The translations under genes were made by a program, and so were the position numbers. A stretch of DNA of 64,000 nt from a virus (Duplodnaviria; Heunggongvirae; Uroviricota; Caudoviricetes): the IMG/VR virus record IMGVR_UViG_3300032046_000003, positions 64,001-128,000 of that record; one strand, written 5' to 3'. Below, piece after piece: positions 1 to 52,432 of the stretch; the first letter of the stretch is position 1; each line of letters opens with the position of its first letter. Below the pieces are notes generated by a model. That model made no database searches. It was not told the origin of the DNA and saw only the letters and a program-made list of their open reading frames with translations.

Positions 1-22
1 TATAAGGGCGGTAATTGGTGAA

Positions 23-217
23 TTGCCTAATGATCCAAAAACTAGAATACAAACTTTAATATTCAATAGAGACCCTAATTTTGGTAAAGCTTGGAATTTA
101 TTTGAAGCTAAGCAATGGACAAAATCACACAAAGACAGAATAAAAGTGAGTATAAATTTGAGAGATTTATTACAAAAATGTCAACAACTTATAACTGATA
201 AAGGAGTGAATCAATAA
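23..217 (+). CDS. Small hypothetical head-module protein
   Basis: TTG-start ORF whose stop overlaps the protease start (TAATG); IQTLIF...AKQW...H pattern resembles small head-associated phage domains; start uncertain. Confidence 0.4.
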   Translation: MPNDPKTRIQTLIFNRDPNFGKAWNLFEAKQWTKSHKDRIKVSINLRDLLQKCQQLITDKGVNQ

Positions 218-2187
218 TGTACCCTAATTTACTTATGCCTGGAAGAGTTAGTAAAACTGAAGTTTCTAAAAGTATAGACGATAATAAATTTGTTATTAGA
301 GGTTATGCTAGTGTTCCTATATTAGATTTGGAAAATGAAATTATAGCTACCGAAGCTTATGATGATGCTATAGAAACTGTAAAATCTAGAGCAGGACAAA
401 ATAGACCACTACCAATTTTTATAGAACATAGGAGAAAAGAATTATCTTTACCAGTGGGCAAAATAACCGATGCTGGCAAAGATGATAAAGGAATGTGGTT
501 TACAGGAGAAATAGCAGGAGGAATAATTGGGCAGCCTATAAGAGAATTAATCAAAGGTGGTTATTTATATGGATGTTCAATTGGAGGAGATGCCGTAAAG
601 ACCGTTCAATATTTTGATACACAACACAATAGAGATGCTAAGAAAATTACAAAGATGGCGTTTAGAGAATTATCTTTAACCGGTCTTCCAGTCAATGAGG
701 AGGCCGTATTTTCAATTTCCAAAAGTCTAAATAAGAACGAAAAGGAGGTGAGAAGATTAATGGATAAGTTAGACTCAGCGATAGATATGCAAAAATCTAT
801 TTCTCTATTAGAGAAGGCCGTGGAGCCCAACAATCTCGACGAACAGTCATTAAATCGAATAAAAGAAGCATTAAACAATTTAGCTAAATTGTTACAAATT
901 GATATTACTGACGAAGGCGGAGAGCAACAAGTTGAAACTCCACCTAAAACAGAAGAGTTGCAAAAACCCGGGATTATGAGTACCAATACCGAATCTACTA
1001 CTGGCGAAGAAAATCCCCAGGAAATAGGGCAGGGAATGGAATCTACAAATATCTCAGGTAACGCCTCGGGGAATACCTCGGGTGGAATGAACTCTGGAGT
1101 TGAAGGCAAATTAGCAATGATTGCCGAAAAACTCGATAAACTGATACAGATTGAAAGTGGCGAAGCTACTACTGATGAAAATGGTTCCCCTAAAGGCAAC
1201 CAAGAATTGGTTGAGGGCGACAAGAAGCCTGATGGTGAAACTGAATTAGTAGAAAACGATAAGAAGAATCAAGAGCCAAAAATGGTCGAAGGAAATAAAA
1301 AGGCTCAGGATAAAAAATCCGATAAAAAGAAAGATTTTAATAAATCTTTAAAAATACAAGGAGACGACGAAATGAGCGATTCTAGAATGGAATGTCCAAA
1401 TTGTGAATCTGTGTATAAAAGCACAGATGAATACGAAGTAAGACATTGCCCAGAATGTGGATCGTCTTTCGCCAAGAGCTCCGAAACAAAGGAGGAAACA
1501 AACAAAATGGAAACCGAAGAAGTAATATTCGAAGACGATCTTATGTGTGAGGACTGTGGCTCAGTATTTGGTAAATCGTTATCGTACGAAGCCAATTATT
1601 GTCCAAAATGCGGTAAATCATTAGCTACCGTGGCTATTGCGCAATCACCTAAGGGTGCAAGTACGCAAAGACCTACGCAAAGCAAAATGAATGTTGGCAA
1701 AACCAACATAGACGATGTAGCTGTTGCCCAAAGTCCTAAAGGCGCATCAACTCAATACAAGAATAAGAGCGAAGCAGCAGAAGATATAGAGAAAAATCTT
1801 GAATTAGAGAATCCGCCTCTAGAAGATACTGGGGAATCAGTTTCAGAGTGGAAAGACGGCAATTATATACCAGCAGATAAAAAGGAAAGAGTAGATATGG
1901 AAGACGAAGATATAAATGTTGCACGTCCTAGTGGAAAACCAATGTTGAGCTCAGCCGATCAGTCAAAATTCCGTACATACGGAACTGATAGGACAAAGTC
2001 GGTCAATGTTGAAGATAGATTAGAATCTATCGAGAAAACATTGGAAAAGGTATTAGATAAATCTGATGGCAGAAAGTCTAATATTCCGTCTGAAAGTATA
2101 GAAAAATCTTCTCAATCTTCAGCAGCTCCTACGCAAGACAGTATTGACAGAAGCTTTGCTAGGATGATACTGGGCAGCGAGAAGTAA
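217..2187 (+). CDS. Prohead (maturation) protease, HK97-type, fused to long acidic scaffold-like C-terminal region with two Zn-ribbon motifs
   Basis: IRGYAS...D.ENE, PIFIEH, PVGKI, GYLYGCSIGG, FRELSLTGLPVNEEA motifs in the first ~170 aa; low-complexity acidic tail; CxxC...CPxCG twice; directly upstream of the capsid gene. Confidence 0.88.
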   Translation: MYPNLLMPGRVSKTEVSKSIDDNKFVIRGYASVPILDLENEIIATEAYDDAIETVKSRAGQNRPLPIFIEHRRKELSLPVGKITDAGKDDKGMWFTGEIAGGIIGQPIRELIKGGYLYGCSIGGDAVKTVQYFDTQHNRDAKKITKMAFRELSLTGLPVNEEAVFSISKSLNKNEKEVRRLMDKLDSAIDMQKSISLLEKAVEPNNLDEQSLNRIKEALNNLAKLLQIDITDEGGEQQVETPPKTEELQKPGIMSTNTESTTGEENPQEIGQGMESTNISGNASGNTSGGMNSGVEGKLAMIAEKLDKLIQIESGEATTDENGSPKGNQELVEGDKKPDGETELVENDKKNQEPKMVEGNKKAQDKKSDKKKDFNKSLKIQGDDEMSDSRMECPNCESVYKSTDEYEVRHCPECGSSFAKSSETKEETNKMETEEVIFEDDLMCEDCGSVFGKSLSYEANYCPKCGKSLATVAIAQSPKGASTQRPTQSKMNVGKTNIDDVAVAQSPKGASTQYKNKSEAAEDIEKNLELENPPLEDTGESVSEWKDGNYIPADKKERVDMEDEDINVARPSGKPMLSSADQSKFRTYGTDRTKSVNVEDRLESIEKTLEKVLDKSDGRKSNIPSESIEKSSQSSAAPTQDSIDRSFARMILGSEK

Positions 2188-2319
2188 TCTCGACTCAAAC
2201 AAAAAAACAAGTGAGACAAATCTCACGAAATTAATAATGCTGCGGTCAACTGGGAGAAGACTACCGCGAAATAAAAAACTTCCTCCAAAAAATCATAAAC
2301 AAAAGGGGGGAAAAATAAA

Positions 2320-2387
2320 ATGGCTAGTTTAGAAAAAGCTCTGTCGTCAATAAGCGGACAGGGCGGAGATGTAATTATACCTCAGCT
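2320..2387 (+). CDS. Major capsid protein, exon 1 (MASLEKALSSISGQGGDVIIPQL)
   Basis: RBS GGGGGG at 2305-2310, ATG at 2320; GG..IP motif typical of the HK97-fold N-arm; frame closes at TAA 2392 unless spliced; exon ends in U as required for a group I 5' splice site. Confidence 0.85.
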
Positions 2388-2466
2388 TAATTAAGCAGGC
2401 TGACTTGCAGGTGACTGCAATGAAAAAAGATTGCTATATCGGAAAAAGTCGAATGGACTATTAAGT

Positions 2467-2519
2467 GGGTCTAAGATTAAATTGATCATTTAATCGACGG
2501 AGCTCCAACTCCTAGACCC
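2467..2519 (+). ncRNA. 53-nt three-way-junction element, copy 1 (upstream of intron-1 endonuclease RBS)
   Basis: GGGTCT-AAG-ATTAAAT/ATTTAAT-CGAC-GGAG/CTCC-T-AGACCC; covaries with the copies at 3642 and 14694. Confidence 0.75.
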
Positions 2520-2542
2520 TTTTAATACTTGGAGGTATTATA

Positions 2543-3205
2543 ATGGAATTATTAGAATGTAAAATTTGTGGACATAAAACTAAACAATTACATAATCATA
2601 TAAAATTTACTCATAAAATGAGTAGTAAAGAATATAAAGAAAAGTTTAATGTTAAGACATTATGTATTATTTGGAATAAAGGTCAAACTAGAAAAACAAA
2701 TTCAATTGTTGCTAAATATGGTGATTCTGCTACAAAAAGTGGTAAACATAGAAAACCACAACCATTATATTTCAAATGTTGGAATAAAGGATTAACAGTA
2801 GATACAGATGAAAGAATGGCTAGACTAAATGTAAAAGCTCAAAAAGCAGTTGCACAAACATTTAAAAGAAAGAATTATATATCTAGTTTAGATGAGAAAC
2901 TATATGTGTTATTAAATAAAAATAACATAAAATATGATCCACAAAAAAGTGTTACTATTGATAATAAATATGTTACGATTTTAGATGCATTTGTAGAACC
3001 TAACATTTGTATTTATGTTGATGGTAATTACTGGCATTCAATTCCAAGAGTAAAAAATAGAGATTCATTTTTTACAGATAAGTTAATAAAAATTGGATTT
3101 AAAGTAATAAGAATATGGGAAAATGAATTCGATAATTCCGAGGAAAGACTCTTAAATTTTATAAGAGAATCCGTAGAGACTATACGCAATCCTCTCAATA
3201 TTTGA
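2543..3205 (+). CDS. Intron-encoded homing endonuclease-like protein (C2H2-type Zn finger + WNKG repeats + Vsr/DUF559-like nuclease domain)
   Basis: CKICG...LHNHIKFTH Zn finger; WNKG repeats; LDAFV..NICIYVDGNYWH...GFKVIRIWE Vsr-like signature; RBS GGAGG at 2531; lies within intron 1. Confidence 0.8.
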   Translation: MELLECKICGHKTKQLHNHIKFTHKMSSKEYKEKFNVKTLCIIWNKGQTRKTNSIVAKYGDSATKSGKHRKPQPLYFKCWNKGLTVDTDERMARLNVKAQKAVAQTFKRKNYISSLDEKLYVLLNKNNIKYDPQKSVTIDNKYVTILDAFVEPNICIYVDGNYWHSIPRVKNRDSFFTDKLIKIGFKVIRIWENEFDNSEERLLNFIRESVETIRNPLNI

Positions 3206-3304
3206 GATGAAGATATAGTCCGAACTGAAAATATAAACCAATAAATTTCAGAGTTAATTAGAAATAATTAACCATCTAAAGACGGTAGATGTAACAACTG
3301 GTTG

Positions 3305-3562
3305 TGCTGACCAGATAATTCCGGTTATCCGTCAGAAATCTTACATGAGGCAATTCTTACAAAGTTTCAATATGCCGACAGAAACGTACAGGTTTCCTAA
3401 GTTAACAACTGGGAATACCGTGTATTATGTTGGAGAAACTGCCTCTGCTCCTGAAAGTTTAATGGCTACGGGGACTGTAGAACTCAACGCGAAAAAGCTC
3501 ATGGTGGCATTAGCGGTCAGTGCTGAATTAGAAGAAGATGCGGTTCTGCCAATCGTTCCCGT
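3305..3562 (+). CDS. Major capsid protein, exon 2
   Basis: ADQIIPVIRQKSYMRQFLQ...YYVGE...VELNAKKLMVALAVSAELEEDA: HK97-fold E-loop/P-domain motifs; in frame with exons 1 and 3 after splicing. Confidence 0.9.
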
Positions 3563-3641
3563 AAATAATATTGCGGCTTTCTCAATAAATTGAGATCGAA
3601 AATTTGACTATATCGGTGAAGGTCTTATGGAAAAAAGTTAT

Positions 3642-3694
3642 GGGGCTAAGATTGAATTAGCTATTTAATCGACGGTGCCTAATCACCAAGCCCC
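3642..3694 (+). ncRNA. 53-nt three-way-junction element, copy 2 (upstream of intron-2 endonuclease RBS)
   Basis: GGGGCT-AAG-ATTGAAT/ATTTAAT-CGAC-GGTG/CACC-A-AGCCCC. Confidence 0.75.
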
Positions 3695-3715
3695 TTATAT
3701 CTATTAGGAGATTAT

Positions 3716-4354
3716 ATGAATAAAGGACAATTTAAAAAAGGGCATAAAGGATATTGGTTCGGAAAGCGTAGAAGCAAAGAAACTATCAGTAAAATAAAAT
3801 TAACTGAGAAAGAACAGTTTAGAAATGGTATACGAAAACCTTGGAATAAGGGATTAAAAGGCGATAAAAGATGCGTTTGGAATGAGGGACTAACAAAAGA
3901 CACAAACGCAGGCATTAAAAAAATAAGTGATTCTAAGAAGGGTAAAACTTTCAAAGAAATCGCAAAGAATGTTAATCCCGAAGAATGGAAAAAGAAAGTA
4001 GCAAGGCATGGTGAAAACAATGGAAGTTGGCGCGGTGGCATAAGTTGGTATCATGGAAAAGATTGGAAAGCAATAAGTAAAAGTTATCGTAAGAAAAACC
4101 CAATTTGTAAAAAATGCAATAAGAAAGTTAAAATTGTTCACCATATATTACCGTATATTGTATTTAAGAGTGATAAAGAATTGATGTCTTTATGCAGAGG
4201 TTGTCATAGAAGTATAGAGAATTTACTAGATAAGTTTTTTAAGATAACACCGAGGAAAGACTGGAGTAATCCAGAATCCGTAGAGACTATACGTCAAATA
4301 ACTAAAGATTGGTTAGTTAATGATATAGTCCGAACTGCAAATATAATCCAATAA
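3716..4354 (+). CDS. Intron-encoded HNH homing endonuclease with NUMOD3-like repeats
   Basis: PWNKGL/WNEGLTK repeats, GENNGSWRGG linker, CKKC...VHHILP...LCRGCH HNH/Zn signature; RBS GGAG at 3707; lies within intron 2. Confidence 0.82.
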   Translation: MNKGQFKKGHKGYWFGKRRSKETISKIKLTEKEQFRNGIRKPWNKGLKGDKRCVWNEGLTKDTNAGIKKISDSKKGKTFKEIAKNVNPEEWKKKVARHGENNGSWRGGISWYHGKDWKAISKSYRKKNPICKKCNKKVKIVHHILPYIVFKSDKELMSLCRGCHRSIENLLDKFFKITPRKDWSNPESVETIRQITKDWLVNDIVRTANIIQ

Positions 4355-4414
4355 ATTGCAGAAGTAATTAGAAATAATTACTCATTTATAGAAATATAAA
4401 TTGTAACATAATTG

Positions 4415-5036
4415 AATAAGGGATGATATGGCAAAAGCATTTGCTCTTGCTGAGGAAAATGTTTTCATCAATGGAGACACAACTCACACTGCAACTGCAA
4501 CGGATCCTTCATCTGGAACTGATGCAAACTGGTATGTTAATGACCAAAGATTGGCTTTTAACGGATTAAGAAAGGTAGCATGTGGCACTTCAGTTGATGC
4601 TGGAAGTGGTGCTCTTACTTTAGCTGATATTTCGGCAGGTATTCAAAACTTAGACGTCTTCGGACGCGATAAGTCAGAGTTACTGTTGATTGTTTCACTT
4701 AGAGAAGAAAACACTCTTCGTCAATTGTTAGGTATCAACCTTGCTGTTAACCAGCTTGGTTTAACCGGCACAGCGCTTCCTGGAGAAATAGGTAAGGTAT
4801 GGGGCGTTCCAGTAGTTGCAACGAATTTACTCGCAATAGATTCTGACAATGAATCGGAAGCTTTAATTCTTAACAGAAATGCAGCGATTATCGGCGATCG
4901 TAGGATATTTACTATCAAGTCTTCGGACGAGGTATTAATACGTACTGATCAATTGTTAATTGTGGCTTCTGAAAGGTTAGCTTTCAATGCTCAATACTGT
5001 CAAGCGGTTGTTAAAATAGTTAACATCGCGGCCTAA
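4415..5036 (+). CDS. Major capsid protein, exon 3 (spliced product 315 aa)
   Basis: IRDDMAKAFALAEENVFINGD...FNGLRK...GEIGKVWGVPVVATN...ASERLAFNAQYCQAVVKI: HK97-fold spine helix and C-terminal motifs; 68+258+622 = 948 nt in one frame. Confidence 0.92.
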
Positions 5037-5052
5037 GTCTAAATGTAATTAA

Positions 5053-5086
5053 GGGTGGGAGGTAGATTTACCTCTGCCTCCCATCT
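5053..5086 (+). terminator. Strong hairpin after the capsid gene (attenuator/terminator or mRNA-stabilising stem)
   Basis: GGGTGGGAGGTAGA-tttacc-TCTGCCTCCCATCT stem; only a weak U tract. Confidence 0.55.
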
Positions 5087-5108
5087 AGTTTAAAATAGGA
5101 GAAATAAA

Positions 5109-5546
5109 ATGTCAAAAGTACTAACAGATTTTAATTTATTACTGAATTGGAAAAAAGAAAAAAAAGTATATAAAATAGTTAAAAATTATCCAATAAATTT
5201 ACCTGAGGAAGTCATTAACTATTTAAAAATAAAATATCCGCAGAATCAAATTAAAATAGTTGATGTAGCACCCATAGCGCCTGTACCATCTATTCCTATT
5301 AATGTTCAAAAAGAACCTAGTGATATGATTCTTGAGGATTTAATAGTACAGTCAAAAATAATCAGTAGTGTTAACGCAGACCCAATAAAAACCACTATAG
5401 AACAAGCTTTAAACAAAGGCATTATAATAAGAAAAGGTGTATGGTATGAGTTTGAGGGCGAAAATATATGTAAAGGAATTAATAAATTAAAAGATAAGCT
5501 TGAAAATGACATGGAACTGTTAAATAAAATTCATAATAAATTATAA
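5109..5546 (+). CDS. Hypothetical protein with RecA C-terminal-domain-like module
   Basis: C-terminus ALNKGIIIRKGVWYEFEGENICKGINKLKDKLENDMELLNKI parallels the RecA CTD pattern (G.I.K.G.WY...GE.IGQG......L.ENPEL...I). Confidence 0.55.
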   Translation: MSKVLTDFNLLLNWKKEKKVYKIVKNYPINLPEEVINYLKIKYPQNQIKIVDVAPIAPVPSIPINVQKEPSDMILEDLIVQSKIISSVNADPIKTTIEQALNKGIIIRKGVWYEFEGENICKGINKLKDKLENDMELLNKIHNKL

Positions 5547-5555
5547 GGAATAAAA

Positions 5556-6722
5556 ATGAAATCATCTTTTACATGGAATTTTTCTAATCCGAGTGATTAT
5601 ACATATAACACTTCAAAAATAACTTTTGCTACAGATATTAATGGTGATGATTATATCACTTTAACTAATCCTGCTGATATGACATTTCCTTATATTATAA
5701 ATGCCACTGGAGTATATTTTACATTTATAAATAAAATAACTACTGTAGAAACTGATACTGTATCAGGTGCCGTAATAAGGTATCAATTAAGTCAAAATGG
5801 AGAAGACTGGTATTTTTATAACACGTCAACAGCACTCTGGGAATTAACAGCCGTAACAACAGGAACTTATTCTGAAATAGTTTCAGCTTCTAATTCTGAT
5901 GTTGAACTTAGTAAGGCTATATGCGAAAAATTTGCTACACAAGTTGATTCAGGAAAATTATATTGGAAAGCATTCTTGATGAGCGACGGCAACAATTCGC
6001 CTCGACTTTATTCTTTTAAATTTGATTTTGAACAATACTATACAACTATAAAATTAATAAGGGATTTAATGAGTCCATATGGATTAAGGGCAAGAGATCC
6101 AATAAGTGGATTATATTGCGTTGATACAGATTTTCTTTCAGATGATAAAATAAGAGCTTATATTCCATTAGCAGATTCATATATTAATAGTTCGTGTTTT
6201 AGAGACTTTTATTATCATAGAGATGTTGTAGAGTTCCACGATGGTAATAATACTGAAGGCATGATTACTTATTTCTTCCCTATAACCAAAATATCGCATG
6301 TTATAATGTATAACCAATTATTACAGGCTATGAGAACATTCCTGGACTTTGAAATAATTATACATCCTGAATGGGGTGAGCTTTTTCTACCACCAGCATA
6401 TCCCGCATTCTTATCGGATAAACCGTCAAGGGCCATATTTGGCAATATATTCATATATGGAAAACGTAACGTTGAAATCATGTATGACTACGGATATGAT
6501 GTGCCTTTAGAAGACATACAGCAAGCGGCCTCAAAATATGCCGGCATATTGGTTCTTCAAGCTTATTGGGCTTGGCTGACAAGAGGAATCCAATCAAGAA
6601 GCTTTGATGGATATTCAGAATCTTATATGCAAAAACCATTCGAAGGTATAACTGAGATTTGGAGAAAAGAAATAGAGATGATTATCAATACCAATAGAAA
6701 GCAATTCCAGAGGTCAATTTAA
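5556..6722 (+). CDS. Head-tail adaptor (neck) protein with N-terminal extension
   Basis: Position after the capsid gene; C-terminal half has YI..AD.YI...C.R.F, Y.YGY..P.EDIQQA and SRSFDGYSESY, typical of adaptor proteins. Confidence 0.65.
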   Translation: MKSSFTWNFSNPSDYTYNTSKITFATDINGDDYITLTNPADMTFPYIINATGVYFTFINKITTVETDTVSGAVIRYQLSQNGEDWYFYNTSTALWELTAVTTGTYSEIVSASNSDVELSKAICEKFATQVDSGKLYWKAFLMSDGNNSPRLYSFKFDFEQYYTTIKLIRDLMSPYGLRARDPISGLYCVDTDFLSDDKIRAYIPLADSYINSSCFRDFYYHRDVVEFHDGNNTEGMITYFFPITKISHVIMYNQLLQAMRTFLDFEIIIHPEWGELFLPPAYPAFLSDKPSRAIFGNIFIYGKRNVEIMYDYGYDVPLEDIQQAASKYAGILVLQAYWAWLTRGIQSRSFDGYSESYMQKPFEGITEIWRKEIEMIINTNRKQFQRSI

Positions 6723-8977
6723 TGGAGATAATGGAACTTTCTGTACTTGAAGAGGCAATGGATATATTAAAAGCTGGAGTTGGGATGCCAAAACTGCCAT
6801 CTGCAGGTGGAGGCATGTCCATGAAACCTCATAAGTACGTTAGAAAGGACCCTGATTATTTTGGTCCTGGTAAACATAGATATTGGTATAAAACTCCTTC
6901 AGGTGATTTAGTATCATCTGATAAAGAAGTTCAAGAGGGACAAGAATTAAAACCTGAAGAGGCTCAAAAAAAGCCTGCGGCTATGGCTCCTGAAGAGCAA
7001 AAACAGCTTGGCAACAAGATAAAAGATTTAATGGCTAATGTTAAACAAAAGCTTGGTGGAATGCCTGCTGAAAAAACGCCAGCACCTATTGCAGCAACTC
7101 AACCTCAAATTTCAGGTGCTGCTGAAGATGTAGAGTTTTTAAGGAACACAATGCCATATTTGGATAATTTGGCAGAAAAACTTAAAAATACCATTGTTCA
7201 ATCTGAAGCAGAGGGCTTAAAACAAGAAATATTAAACAATTATGTGGGTAGATTTAGAGATTTAGTGTATGAAAAAATGCACAAATTACCACCTGGACAA
7301 ACTGTTGGTAAAACTGATACAATAAAAACTGAAAAAGATATTGAAAAACTTGAAAATATGAAGCGTGAAGCTTATATGAATAAAGATATGAAACAAGCTA
7401 AGAGAATAGATATGAGAATAACTGAAATTTCTCAAGCCGAGGCTGCTTTAGAAGAAGACAAGTTGAAACAGCAATATGCCTCTGAGATAAAAGATAGAAC
7501 AGAAAATCCCCAAAAGTATTATCAGAAAAATCAAGATGTTAAAGCAAAATCTTTAAGCGTAAGCAATAGTGTAAAAATTAAGGAAAAACAAGCCGTTAAT
7601 GATTACTATTTGTATTCTATAAACAAAGAGCAAAGGGATGCGGGAAAGTCGGAGTTTAAAAATATAGATGATTATTATACTCAAGTTGGAAGCGCCATAG
7701 ACAGCGTAATTAAAACTGCGGCGATCTCTAAATATAGCATCAACGCTAAAACGGGCGATGTTAAACTTTGGGGCACTAAGGAAGAAATAGAGGCTAATGC
7801 TAATAAGGTGCTTGAGTTGACTAAAAACTCTGCGACAAATGTTAGTTATGAGAAAATTGGCCTTGAAGAAGGGAAATTAAGGGGCATATTGAAATTCTCT
7901 AATTTGAGGACTGTGCCTCTGTATAAACCCTATAAAACGAGCGCGGTAGACGTGGCCCAAGATATATCTAGCAAAACTTTAGACGGAAATAAGACTGCCA
8001 GACGATGTATGGGAATAGGTAAAGACGGCAAGCCCATACTGCAAGAATTGACCGGAGAAAAAGGACATAATGCTAGAATGGTTTACGCGTCAAAAGGAAG
8101 CGGAAAGACTGAGATGATTGAGGGAACAATTATGTCAGCTTTAGAGGGTAATTCAGATGGCACATATAGAGCGGTTGTTGTTGATCCTGTTGGAGCAACA
8201 TTCTCAATATTAAAAGCGGATGATGCGAGTTTATCTCCCGAACAAAAAAATTATAAAAACAAATTAAACAATTGGATTAAAACAGGAAGACTGACGGTGT
8301 TTTCAGATAAGGTCGACCAAAACAATTACAAAGACTTCTATAAGAAAACCACAGATTATATAAATAAGGAAAGAGCTCTGCAGGCATCATCGAGAGGTTC
8401 TGACAACAATTTGTACAACAGCCCATACGTTCAAGGCGCGATAGACATACATATGGATGAATTACAAGTATTAAATGGCTTTGCAGAAAAAGACCCGGAA
8501 ATGAAAACTAAACTATACAGCTTAATACGCAATATAGCAAACAATGATTCCAGAAAAAACTTAATGCCTATTACCTGTTATGCGCAAATGCCAAACACTA
8601 AAATGAACTCTGCTATTGGAGCGAGTTGGGACGCTATAGAAAGTATAGGCTCGGCTGCTTATAGAGCCATAGGAAGCACTCATGGAATAGCTTCGGCAAA
8701 AGAATTTAAAAAAGCAGCTGCGAATGAAATTACATCATATGATATGAATTCGCATACTGCAGATTATTATGACCAAATGGTAGTTGGCCCTTCTATAAAA
8801 GACGCCTTTGGCGAAATTAAAGGCAATACGGAACCAACTAATAATTCAAACGCTAAAGAACAACAAATACCTGTATCAATGAAAGAGGGATATACTAAAG
8901 AAACGATGCCTACTGGACCCAACGTAATAGACGCAGCGAAAGTCGGTAAAAAAACATTACCAATTAAAAGGACTTAA
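6722..8977 (+). CDS. Large protein with C-terminal FtsK/HerA-like P-loop domain; candidate internal virion protein
   Basis: GKDGKP...RMVYASKGSGKT (variant Walker A), AVVVDP, IHMDELQ (Walker B); N-terminal ILKA and HKYVRK...GKHRYWY motifs; embedded in the neck module. Confidence 0.6.
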   Translation: MEIMELSVLEEAMDILKAGVGMPKLPSAGGGMSMKPHKYVRKDPDYFGPGKHRYWYKTPSGDLVSSDKEVQEGQELKPEEAQKKPAAMAPEEQKQLGNKIKDLMANVKQKLGGMPAEKTPAPIAATQPQISGAAEDVEFLRNTMPYLDNLAEKLKNTIVQSEAEGLKQEILNNYVGRFRDLVYEKMHKLPPGQTVGKTDTIKTEKDIEKLENMKREAYMNKDMKQAKRIDMRITEISQAEAALEEDKLKQQYASEIKDRTENPQKYYQKNQDVKAKSLSVSNSVKIKEKQAVNDYYLYSINKEQRDAGKSEFKNIDDYYTQVGSAIDSVIKTAAISKYSINAKTGDVKLWGTKEEIEANANKVLELTKNSATNVSYEKIGLEEGKLRGILKFSNLRTVPLYKPYKTSAVDVAQDISSKTLDGNKTARRCMGIGKDGKPILQELTGEKGHNARMVYASKGSGKTEMIEGTIMSALEGNSDGTYRAVVVDPVGATFSILKADDASLSPEQKNYKNKLNNWIKTGRLTVFSDKVDQNNYKDFYKKTTDYINKERALQASSRGSDNNLYNSPYVQGAIDIHMDELQVLNGFAEKDPEMKTKLYSLIRNIANNDSRKNLMPITCYAQMPNTKMNSAIGASWDAIESIGSAAYRAIGSTHGIASAKEFKKAAANEITSYDMNSHTADYYDQMVVGPSIKDAFGEIKGNTEPTNNSNAKEQQIPVSMKEGYTKETMPTGPNVIDAAKVGKKTLPIKRT

Positions 8978-14693: not shown

Positions 14694-14746
14694 GGGCCTA
14701 AGGTTGACCTCATGAATCAATCGACGGTGCTTGTACACCAAGGCCC
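14694..14746 (+). ncRNA. 53-nt three-way-junction element, copy 3 (free-standing, no intron)
   Basis: GGGCCT-AAG-GTTGA/TCAAT-CGAC-GGTG/CACC-A-AGGCCC; no group I R/S elements nearby. Confidence 0.75.
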
Positions 14747-51071: not shown

Positions 51072-51100
51072 TTTACATCTTGACACAAATACATTATAAT
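51072..51100 (+). promoter_or_regulatory. sigma70/sigmaA-type promoter P2
   Basis: TTTACA-17 nt-TATAAT. Confidence 0.8.
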
Positions 51101-51106
51101 ATATAT

Positions 51107-52432
51107 ATGAAACAAGAAAATACAAAATTGACCGAGCTGTTGATTAAGTTATTTGATAAAGATATTTATCAGGTCGGCGGCGTAGTCAGAGACGAGATTC
51201 TAAACAGGCCTTGTAAGGACATGGATTTTCTCGTCATAAATCGTGATTATAATTCTATAGCTAATGATCTGTCTTATTATGGTAAAACCTATTTGGTGGG
51301 CAAAAGCTTCGGTATAATAAAATTCAAGCCCAATGAAATGGATATAACAGTTGATATTGCAATTCCACGGACTGAAAAGAGCGTGGGGGTAGGACACCGG
51401 GATTTTGAGGTTAACACTAAAAACGTCAGTCTTCAGGACGATTTGGACAGGCGAGATTTTACCATGAATGCATTGGCAAAAAATTTATTGACAGGGAAGA
51501 TAACAGATATAGTTGAAGGTCAAAGAGACATAGACAAAAAATTGATATGTGTGATAACGTCAAAGTCTTTTACAGAAGACCCGCTTAGGATGATAAGAGC
51601 CTGCAGGTTCGCCTCACAATTGAATTTTCAAATAGGCTGGACCACGCAAAATCTTATAATTGAAAGCGCTGAGCTAATAAAGACAATAAGTGGAGAACGC
51701 ATACAGGAAGAACTGAACAAAATTTTGGTGTCAGACAAACCCTCAATAGGATTAAGGTATTTATCAAAACTAGGATTAATGATGTATATTGTGCCTGAAG
51801 TGGAACTTTTAAACGGCATAGAACAACCAAAAAAATATCATATGTATGATGCATTTATTCACACTATGGAAACCGTCGATCAAATAAAAAATGACTTGAC
51901 GCTAAGACTGACAGCTCTGTTGCACGATGTAGGGAAGGTAGACACCCAGACTATTGAGAATGGCGAGATACATTTTTATGAGCACGAAGACACAAGCGTT
52001 ATGAGAGCGCGAGATGTTATGTTGAGGTTAAAATATCCTAATGATATATCCGATAGGGTCCTGTTGCTGATCAAGCATCATTTGGTAGACTTGAACCTGT
52101 CAAGAAAAGGCATTAGGAAATTGATTGCGGCTGTAGGCGTTGATAATATATATGATTTACTAGAGCATAAGCGAGCTGATAAATTAGCCTCACTGCCAGA
52201 TAATGAACAGTTGGAAGATATAGAGACTCTTAAATTAAAAGTAGAAAAAGAAATAAAAAACGAAAGCGCCTTCTCTATCAAGGATTTAGACATATCAGGA
52301 GAAGACATTATGAAAATACTTAATATTCCCCCGGGGCCTAAAGTTGGCGAAGTACTTAAGTCACTGTTTGATAAGGTTATGGATAATCCTGAACTCAACG
52401 AAAAAGAGACCTTAATTAAATTAGTAGTTTAA
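51107..52432 (+). CDS. cca: tRNA nucleotidyltransferase (CCA-adding enzyme) with HD domain
   Basis: VGGVVRD, KDMDF (DxD), RRDFTMNA, EDPLRMIRA.RF, ERI.EEL.KIL, LLHDVGK; start set at ATG 51107 rather than track TTG 51080, which lies inside promoter P2. Confidence 0.92.
   Translation: MKQENTKLTELLIKLFDKDIYQVGGVVRDEILNRPCKDMDFLVINRDYNSIANDLSYYGKTYLVGKSFGIIKFKPNEMDITVDIAIPRTEKSVGVGHRDFEVNTKNVSLQDDLDRRDFTMNALAKNLLTGKITDIVEGQRDIDKKLICVITSKSFTEDPLRMIRACRFASQLNFQIGWTTQNLIIESAELIKTISGERIQEELNKILVSDKPSIGLRYLSKLGLMMYIVPEVELLNGIEQPKKYHMYDAFIHTMETVDQIKNDLTLRLTALLHDVGKVDTQTIENGEIHFYEHEDTSVMRARDVMLRLKYPNDISDRVLLLIKHHLVDLNLSRKGIRKLIAAVGVDNIYDLLEHKRADKLASLPDNEQLEDIETLKLKVEKEIKNESAFSIKDLDISGEDIMKILNIPPGPKVGEVLKSLFDKVMDNPELNEKETLIKLVV

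Follow-up and report, generated by a model that had tools for sequence, protein, structure and literature searches.

We examined a 64-kb stretch of DNA (the window) that covers bases 64001-128000 of the 178,280-bp tailed-phage record IMGVR_UViG_3300032046_000003 from sediment; all coordinates given here are those of the window. Between a prohead protease gene and a set of downstream genes for the tail sheath and other tail proteins lies a predicted HK97-family major capsid protein (MCP) gene, divided into three exons by two inserts with the architecture of group I introns. Each insert carries an endonuclease gene and a small structured RNA in the loop of its helix P5, and DNA alleles exist from which one insert or the other is exactly missing. 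The analysis makes it very probable that both inserts are selfish, homing-competent group I introns, and that a single capsid message is restored by their self-splicing.

The capsid gene and its exons

The reading frame opens with an ATG at 2320, preceded by a G-rich AGGGGGG resembling a ribosome-binding site (RBS), and in unspliced form it meets a TAA just past 2388. Joining the three exons (Table 1) gives 948 nt, corresponding to 315 codons and a stop with no internal stop codon, the product that had been proposed from the sequence alone. Exons 2 and 3 each score above the cut-off of PF05065 (Phage_capsid; 24.2 bits), and their two matches are contiguous and collinear along the profile. A search of the protein set with exon 3 retrieved 51 relatives, including uninterrupted proteins of 306-339 amino acids (aa). 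Against 24 uninterrupted homologues the joined product aligns gap-free over both junctions, IIPQL/ADQIIP and LPIVPV/IRDDMAKAF, and the junction segments IIPQLADQIIP and LPIVPVIRDD rank with the best-conserved parts of the family. The exons are 84-88% identical to intact homologues and free of frameshifts. A protein-guided spliced aligner based on dynamic programming was written for this analysis, with a T before the intron and a G at the intron end as its sole border rule; using the independent homologue P0002, it returned introns at 2388-3304 and 3563-4414, both in phase 2, and the exon and intron coordinates are therefore exact.

The family profile also matches the solved capsids of T5/DT57C (E 8e-12) and of gene transfer agents (GTA; E 7e-5) which, together with PF05065, identifies the gene at the level of sequence profiles as an HK97-family major capsid gene, as the sequence-only reading had it. 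That reading also expected automated annotation to fragment the gene: the public protein set indeed represents the capsid protein of this phage solely by the 202-aa open reading frame (ORF) of exon 3, P0001, and many relatives are likewise called as fragments of 202-270 aa.

A tblastn search of the 178-kb genome found no second full-length MCP, so that virion production would need both splicing events. The other match of that search is a 129-aa ORF at L015:1255-1644 (genome 8754-9143), 31% identical over 71 alignment columns to capsid residues 175-243 (E 2e-6) and lacking a Pfam capsid domain, which may be either a fragment of capsid origin or a match by chance. An intein reading of the inserts was rejected, as in-frame stop codons follow both exon ends and a Hint domain is absent.

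Ribozyme architecture and covariation

The elements that the sequence-only reading had listed at each junction, namely a U.G pair in P1, a P10 pairing, a terminal G and R and S core elements, were all located in both introns, and a complete set of helices from P1 to P9.2 could be assigned to each (Table 1). P10 comprises 4 bp directly 5' of the guide sequence in both. Within the window and within the whole 178-kb genome, the R element CCGTAGAGACTATACG and the S element GATATAGTCCGAACTG occur solely in these two introns, and the genome holds two intron cores in total. An early candidate for P4 (GUCGA/UCGAC, with AAUCGACGG as Q element) was abandoned, as it crosses a covarying stem of the three-way-junction RNA described below and fails in intron 2. 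P4 was instead fixed as UCGG.../...CCGA by the nearest ORF-less relative, an intron at L013:94-319, together with its Infernal alignment. This relative has the same P, Q, R and S sequences as the window introns, and the alignment gave the same assignment of P1, P3, P4, P5, P6, P7 and P8.

Between intron 1 and intron 2, compensatory changes are found in P2, P3, P4, P5, P6a, P8, P9, P9.1 and P9.2, which includes the covariation of P3 and P4 reported earlier (sequences in Table 1). When the 5' and the 3' half of each intron are folded on their own, the minimum free energy (MFE) structures show the same helices, at z-scores of -2.5 to -4.7. With 11 related 3' domains aligned, 91% of cells are paired and double changes occur in 13 of the 22 pairs; pairing falls to 31-46% in slid controls, and the P7-P9.1 covariation score was reached by none of 500 shuffles. 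Across 13 related introns, P3 is always a duplex of 5-7 bp of differing sequence, P4 has 5-6 bp with covariation at some positions, and the strands of P5 are complementary while their sequences differ.

A covariance model (CM) trained on nine relatives alone, with the window introns left out, gave one match in each intron (Table 1) and no others in the 64-kb window. This result and the intron-less forms in independent DNA contigs, described below, place the observation far outside what chance would give. The 3' domains of the two introns are mutually nearest: their identity is 70% in the multiple alignment and 82% when the two are aligned as a pair, and that with the others is 57-67%. The inserts are thus two related, sister group I introns, in line with the first assessment.

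Table 1. Capsid-locus features in window coordinates
Feature	Position	Strand	Sequence or evidence
MCP exon 1, 68 nt	2320..2387	+	Codons 1-22 and 2 nt of Leu23, last base U2387; aligns to N-termini of uninterrupted homologues
MCP exon 2, 258 nt	3305..3562	+	Last base U3562; PF05065 profile positions 11-93, E 3.5e-12, 46.8 bits
MCP exon 3, 622 nt	4415..5036	+	Includes TAA stop; PF05065 profile positions 98-279, E 4.8e-11, 43 bits
Group I intron 1, 917 nt	2388..3304	+	CM match 3134-3301, 89.4 bits; MFE folds; allele in run X4
Intron 1 P1	2382-2387/2398-2403	+	UCAGCU/GGCUGA, U2387.G2398 wobble
Intron 1 P10	2394-2397/3305-3308	+	AGCA/UGCU
Intron 1 P2	2405-2410/2415-2420	+	GUGA loop
Intron 1 P3	2429-2434/3186-3191	+	GAUUGC/GCAAUC
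Intron 1 P4	2439-2444/3136-3141	+	UCGGAA/UUCCGA
Intron 1 P5	2448-2453/3128-3133	+	
Intron 1 P6; P6a	3142-3144/3170-3172; 3149-3154/3162-3167	+	
Intron 1 P7; P8	3178-3184/3214-3220; 3193-3198/3202-3207	+	
Intron 1 P9; P9.1; P9.2	3225-3230/3246-3251; 3254-3260/3265-3271; 3273-3278/3286-3291	+	GAAA loop in P9.1
Intron 1 terminal G (omega G)	3304	+	Border set independently by homologue alignment and intron-less allele
Group I intron 2, 852 nt	3563..4414	+	CM match 4246-4414, 96.8 bits; MFE folds; allele in run X3
Intron 2 P1	3559-3562/3573-3576, extends to 3564/3571	+	CCGU/GCGG, U3562.G3573 wobble
Intron 2 P10	3569-3572/4415-4418	+	UAUU/AAUA
Intron 2 P2	3580-3585/3590-3595	+	
Intron 2 P3	3602-3608/4293-4299	+	AUUUGAC/GUCAAAU
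Intron 2 P4	3613-3618/4248-4253	+	UCGGUG/CACCGA
Intron 2 P5	3622-3626/4241-4245	+	
Intron 2 P6; P6a	4254-4256/4277-4279; 4261-4265/4270-4274	+	GUAA loop in P6a
Intron 2 P7; P8	4285-4291/4324-4330; 4300-4305/4313-4318	+	
Intron 2 P9; P9.1; P9.2	4335-4340/4356-4361; 4364-4370/4375-4381; 4384-4390/4395-4401	+	GAAA loop in P9.1
Intron 2 terminal G (omega G)	4414	+	Border set independently by homologue alignment and intron-less allele
Three-way-junction RNA, 53 nt	2467..2519	+	P5 loop of intron 1, just upstream of endonuclease RBS; stem GGGUCUA/UAGACCC round two hairpins
Three-way-junction RNA, second copy	3642..3694	+	P5 loop of intron 2; stem GGGGCU/AGCCCC
Intron-1 homing endonuclease gene, 220 aa	2543..3205	+	ROS/MucR-type zinc finger, WNKG DNA-binding modules, DUF559/Vsr-like PD-(D/E)xK nuclease
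Intron-2 homing endonuclease gene, 212 aa	3716..4354	+	NUMOD3-like and WNxGL modules, HNH nuclease (CxxC...HH...CxxCH)
Prohead serine protease (S78) with long zinc-ribbon-rich tail	217..2187	+	PF04586, E 5.8e-9; upstream of MCP

Endonuclease cassettes in the P5 loops

In each P5 loop a 53-nt three-way junction comes first, followed by a Shine-Dalgarno sequence and then by an ORF, for a total of about 670 nt. The stems of the three-way junction covary between the two intron copies. The element (GGGNCUAAGAUU...UUUAAUCGACGG...) has about 14 recurrences on the genome's + strand, among them sites near 14716, 15063, 22470, 48463, 49519 and 56161 and others outside the window. It is present in the endonuclease-bearing introns of the related loci L005, L013 and L014 and absent from ORF-less introns. 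In our reading it belongs not to the ribozyme but to a mobile endonuclease cassette by which the P5 loop was invaded.

The two ORFs encode putative homing endonucleases of different families. That of intron 1, with a GGAGG RBS at 2531-2535, matches PF05443 above its cut-off (27.5 bits) and PF04480 (24.4 bits, cut-off 20.6), while PF18741 (REase_MTES_1575) stays below its cut-off (26.2 against 38.2 bits). The intron-2 ORF matches HNH endonuclease families among the phrogs (phrog_144, E 1.1e-10; phrog_8446, 4e-9; and 589, with values ranging to 2e-8); its Pfam HNH match reaches 12.7 bits against a cut-off of 21.4, and NUMOD3 is likewise below cut-off. Sequence searches of the PDB with both proteins gave nothing meaningful, and for the intron-1 ORF this includes I-Bth0305I. 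The two endonucleases are unrelated save for a short WNxG..T..TN module and the heptapeptide ESVETIR. The latter reflects dual coding: at 3167-3187 and 4274-4294, near both C-termini, the ribozyme core AATCCGTAGAGACTATACG is read as ESVETIR, which is thus common to both proteins as the translation of the shared P6'-P7 core.

One segment of the intron-1 ORF has a wider distribution. At 2782-2878, contig depth rises to 17-38x in runs X1, X3 and X4, and many short contigs of those runs end at 2779 and 2817; this region of the WNKGLT module is common to many other elements in these metagenomes. A blastn search against 50,697 phage records gave a single match, of 100 nt, to Microcystis phage MaeS; it lies within the intron-1 ORF.

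Genes split by the insertion of endonuclease genes are known in T4-like phages, and free-standing endonuclease genes could in the same way have divided this capsid gene into fragments that are translated separately and assemble without RNA splicing. An in-frame ATG at 4428 in exon 3, and the calling of this exon as a 202-aa ORF, would suit such an arrangement. Exon 1 alone, however, would yield a 25-residue peptide, the 5' end of exon 2 has neither a start codon nor an RBS, and both cuts fall inside the conserved junction segments, so that the fragments are unlikely to fold; moreover, the endonuclease genes sit within complete ribozyme folds with U/G borders. We regard separately translated fragments as the least probable of the explanations considered, and hardly credible.

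Intron-plus and intron-less DNA alleles

Contigs from other sediment metagenome runs carry the locus in different states. A contig of run X4 reads 2294-2385, TTA and 3306-3400, and so represents an allele without exactly intron 1, in which Leu23 is encoded by TTA instead of CT/T (the slash marks the junction). Conversely, a contig of run X3 extends from 3144, within intron 1, through exon 2 to 3559, followed by TGTT and then by 4416; intron 1 is present and exactly intron 2 is absent, with CCT GTT in place of CCC GT/A. In both alleles the differences from the spliced form are synonymous and lie right at the junctions, the genomes being otherwise near-identical. These alleles therefore define the introns as precisely delimited, optional insertions in a natural population. 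The junction variants may be endonuclease-resistant targets, or else the exons of intron-bearing genomes may have become adapted to P1 and P10. Run X2 contains stretches of both introns, 2200-2834 with two letters changed and 3542-4381 unchanged, and both introns were found in at least two sediment metagenome runs.

The gene is known from metagenomic DNA assembly alone, which would leave room for a dead capsid pseudogene, from a defective or mis-assembled genome, whose inserts no longer splice. Such decay is very improbable given exons free of stops and frameshifts that remain this close to intact homologues, ribozyme helices kept intact by compensatory changes, the recurrence of the same arrangement in several sediment runs, a complete genome with terminal repeats, and the absence of a second full-length MCP.

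Intron-rich capsid genes in relatives

Fourteen related loci were fetched from viral contigs. Five have complete uninterrupted capsid genes (L001 and L007-L010), and two more, cut by the contig end, have no intron in the part present. The remaining seven are interrupted at other places and represent six distinct contigs, the maps of L003 and L004 being identical: one intron is found in L003/L004 and in L002, two in L012, three each in L005 and L014, and sixteen in L013. In window and relatives together, the roughly 315 codons of the gene are interrupted at about 25 distinct sites, three of which (after aa 25, 101 and 126) are common to two loci; the two sites of the window were seen in no other locus. 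RF00028, the Rfam group I intron model, scores 12 of the relatives' capsid-gene introns above its gathering threshold, at 58-83 bits.

The MCP gene of L013 (IMGVR_UViG_3300032053_000045, 80-7859) spans 7,780 nt for 918 nt of coding sequence, and is thus 88% intron. Its 17 exons measure 11-344 nt (the shortest 11, 13 and 14) and, once joined, give an intact 305-aa frame collinear with P0015. Thirteen of its 16 introns are without an ORF (226-295 nt), and 10 of the 16 pass the Rfam gathering score. All donors end in T and all introns in G, a rule imposed by the aligner and hence not an independent check; the evidence that does not depend on this rule is the intact, collinear 305-aa frame. The 17-exon structure rests on one contig: a search for an independent assembly, by exact patterns in viral and metagenome contigs, returned the same contig only and is uninformative either way.

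We lean, with some reserve, towards a wider view in which a radiating family of group I introns has found a sink in this capsid-gene lineage, with about 25 sites over 9 interrupted loci and an L013 MCP gene in 17 exons. If this is true, the intron density of L013 would be far above that of any phage gene we found described. The introns would also have reached new sites with no site-specific endonuclease involved, through reverse splicing or ectopic recombination for instance, and such spread without homing is likely since most L013 introns have no endonuclease gene. Finally, 16 ribozymes would have to fold in order, the micro-exons between them providing P10 to the intron before and P1 to the intron after.

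Genome context

The 178,280-bp record has direct terminal repeats and is estimated to be complete. All large ORFs lie on the same strand, and the phage is a myovirus. The S78 protease upstream of the capsid gene (217-2187) continues into a fused tail of about 480 aa that contains two zinc-ribbon modules (DUF7564 and DUF7129) and repeated AQSPKGASTQ segments, which is unusual for a head-maturation protease or scaffold. Farther downstream, at 51080-52432, lies the gene for a CCA-adding enzyme of class II (PolyA_pol head, E 8e-24), which has an HD domain.

Discussion

From the exon structure, the covarying ribozyme architecture, the endonuclease families and the presence/absence polymorphism in DNA, we infer splicing, endonuclease activity and homing as follows. 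In the late pre-mRNA, the end of the upstream exon would pair with the internal guide sequence to form P1, with the U.G pair at the cut; free guanosine would be bound in P7 and the 5' site cleaved; P10 would then align the downstream exon, and the exons would be ligated after the terminal G into a message for the 315-aa capsid protein. The endonucleases presumably cut the intron-less capsid alleles of co-infecting relatives, whose repair would copy the intron in. The phage would tolerate the introns since splicing restores the message, and they would not amount to a built-in regulator.

The sequence-only reading had gone further and suggested a possible timing control, in which introns that do splice have been co-opted so that two sequential ribozyme steps delay or gate capsid synthesis. 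The capsid output of this phage would indeed depend on both splicing events, the gene being its sole full-length MCP copy, and the overlap of the endonuclease ORFs with the ribozyme core could couple translation to splicing. This suggestion was, however, pure inference, and near-identical genomes do without intron 1 (X4) or intron 2 (X3). Relatives have complete uninterrupted MCP genes at 5 of 14 loci, intron positions vary among the others, and a regulatory signal was not found. Regulation of this kind is therefore unlikely. Selfish mobility is the better reading, since intron-less alleles occur in near-identical genomes and both introns carry homing endonuclease genes.

Several observations weigh against self-splicing, mobile introns in a capsid gene. 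The P1 of intron 2 has just 4 exon pairs, or 6 when intron bases are counted. The intron-1 ORF overlaps the ribozyme at its 3' end, from P5' to P8, and the intron-2 ORF runs from P5' through P7 and P8 into P9; as both extend into the catalytic core, translation could interfere with folding. The Rfam group I models, which had been suggested as a check, also did not recognize the introns: RF00028 scores 18 bits for intron 1 and 16.6 bits for intron 2, below its gathering threshold of 50 bits, a scan of the whole window at gathering threshold gave no match, and neither did RF00028 on the whole 178-kb genome at E <= 0.001. Most likely, the introns are missed owing to the roughly 670 nt inserted between the P5 strands; their ORF-less relative at L013:94-319 reaches 45 bits (E 5e-10). 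The AlphaFold model of P0002, an 86%-identical homologue, is of low confidence (pLDDT 55), and the Foldseek matches listed for it are HK97-fold capsids or encapsulin-type shells (T5, Bxb1, GTA, HK97 and encapsulins), or nanocages engineered from them, at TM scores of only 0.3-0.4; in view of this weak model, the HK97-fold claim leans on the sequence profiles. Lastly, the stretch was found in DNA runs and in no RNA run.

Phage group I introns with endonuclease genes are classically represented by td, nrdB and sunY of T4 with I-TevI-III, and intron endonucleases include the HNH enzymes I-HmuI and I-TwoI and the PD-(D/E)xK enzyme I-Bth0305I. The present introns resemble the T4 type in having a group I ribozyme from which, at a peripheral helix, an endonuclease ORF with its own RBS and a structured leader is looped out, and their nucleases have HNH or Vsr-like folds, as in the other enzymes. 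They differ in that the ORF lies in the P5 loop, not in P6, P8 or P9, in that the target is a structural gene, and in that neither endonuclease has a detectable sequence match to any solved one.

The sequence-only reading regarded introns in structural genes as uncommon, but they are less rare than it assumed. Group I introns in capsid genes have already been published, and the present case is thus not the first of its sort. In mycobacteriophage LittleE (Cluster J), a group I intron in the major capsid gene gp13 was demonstrated by RT-PCR and N-terminal sequencing, and the same paper cites a capsid-gene intron in lactococcal phage Tuc2009 (PMC3706429). The LittleE case shares with ours an HK97-type capsid gene, an endonuclease-carrying intron of about 0.8 kb, an exon ending in U, an intron ending in G and intron-less relatives; it comprises one intron of proven splicing, whereas here two sister introns with different endonuclease families are known from DNA. 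In the crAss-like Delta and Zeta phages, MCP genes are broken into as many as five fragments (Yutin et al. 2021, PMC7886860). These are also metagenomic phages, of 145-192 kb, whose MCP gene is interrupted more than once by group I introns that carry endonuclease ORFs, and with annotation fragmented in the same manner. However, they form a gut lineage, whereas ours is a sediment myovirus with a tail sheath and no recoded stops; their introns were recognised via protein domains, while the present ribozymes are mapped helix by helix, and the five fragments of their published maximum compare with 17 exons in the relative L013.

Several related self-splicing introns within one late phage gene are likewise found in orf142 of phage Twort, with three group I introns (Landthaler and Shub 1999, as cited in PMC6669764), and in the Bastillevirinae, with 45 introns in 37 genes (PMC11878797); these belong to other hosts and intron lineages, and were tested by experiment. 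The Jug phages have on average 18.5 introns per genome (PMC12880540). The present locus stands out in that its sister ribozymes carry different nucleases, in having a cassette in the P5 loop and in being polymorphic at the DNA level.

These results have a practical consequence, as the default Rfam threshold misses endonuclease-loaded introns such as these two. They also bring together sister ribozymes that carry unrelated nucleases behind a common RNA leader, and intron-plus and intron-minus alleles that coexist in one sediment series, and thereby provide a natural system in which homing, the escape of target sites and the exchange of endonucleases can be studied in a structural gene that is essential and very highly expressed. 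To judge from the relatives, capsid genes can put up with extreme numbers of introns, and the intron-less alleles in near-identical genomes argue that the introns are dispensable selfish elements.

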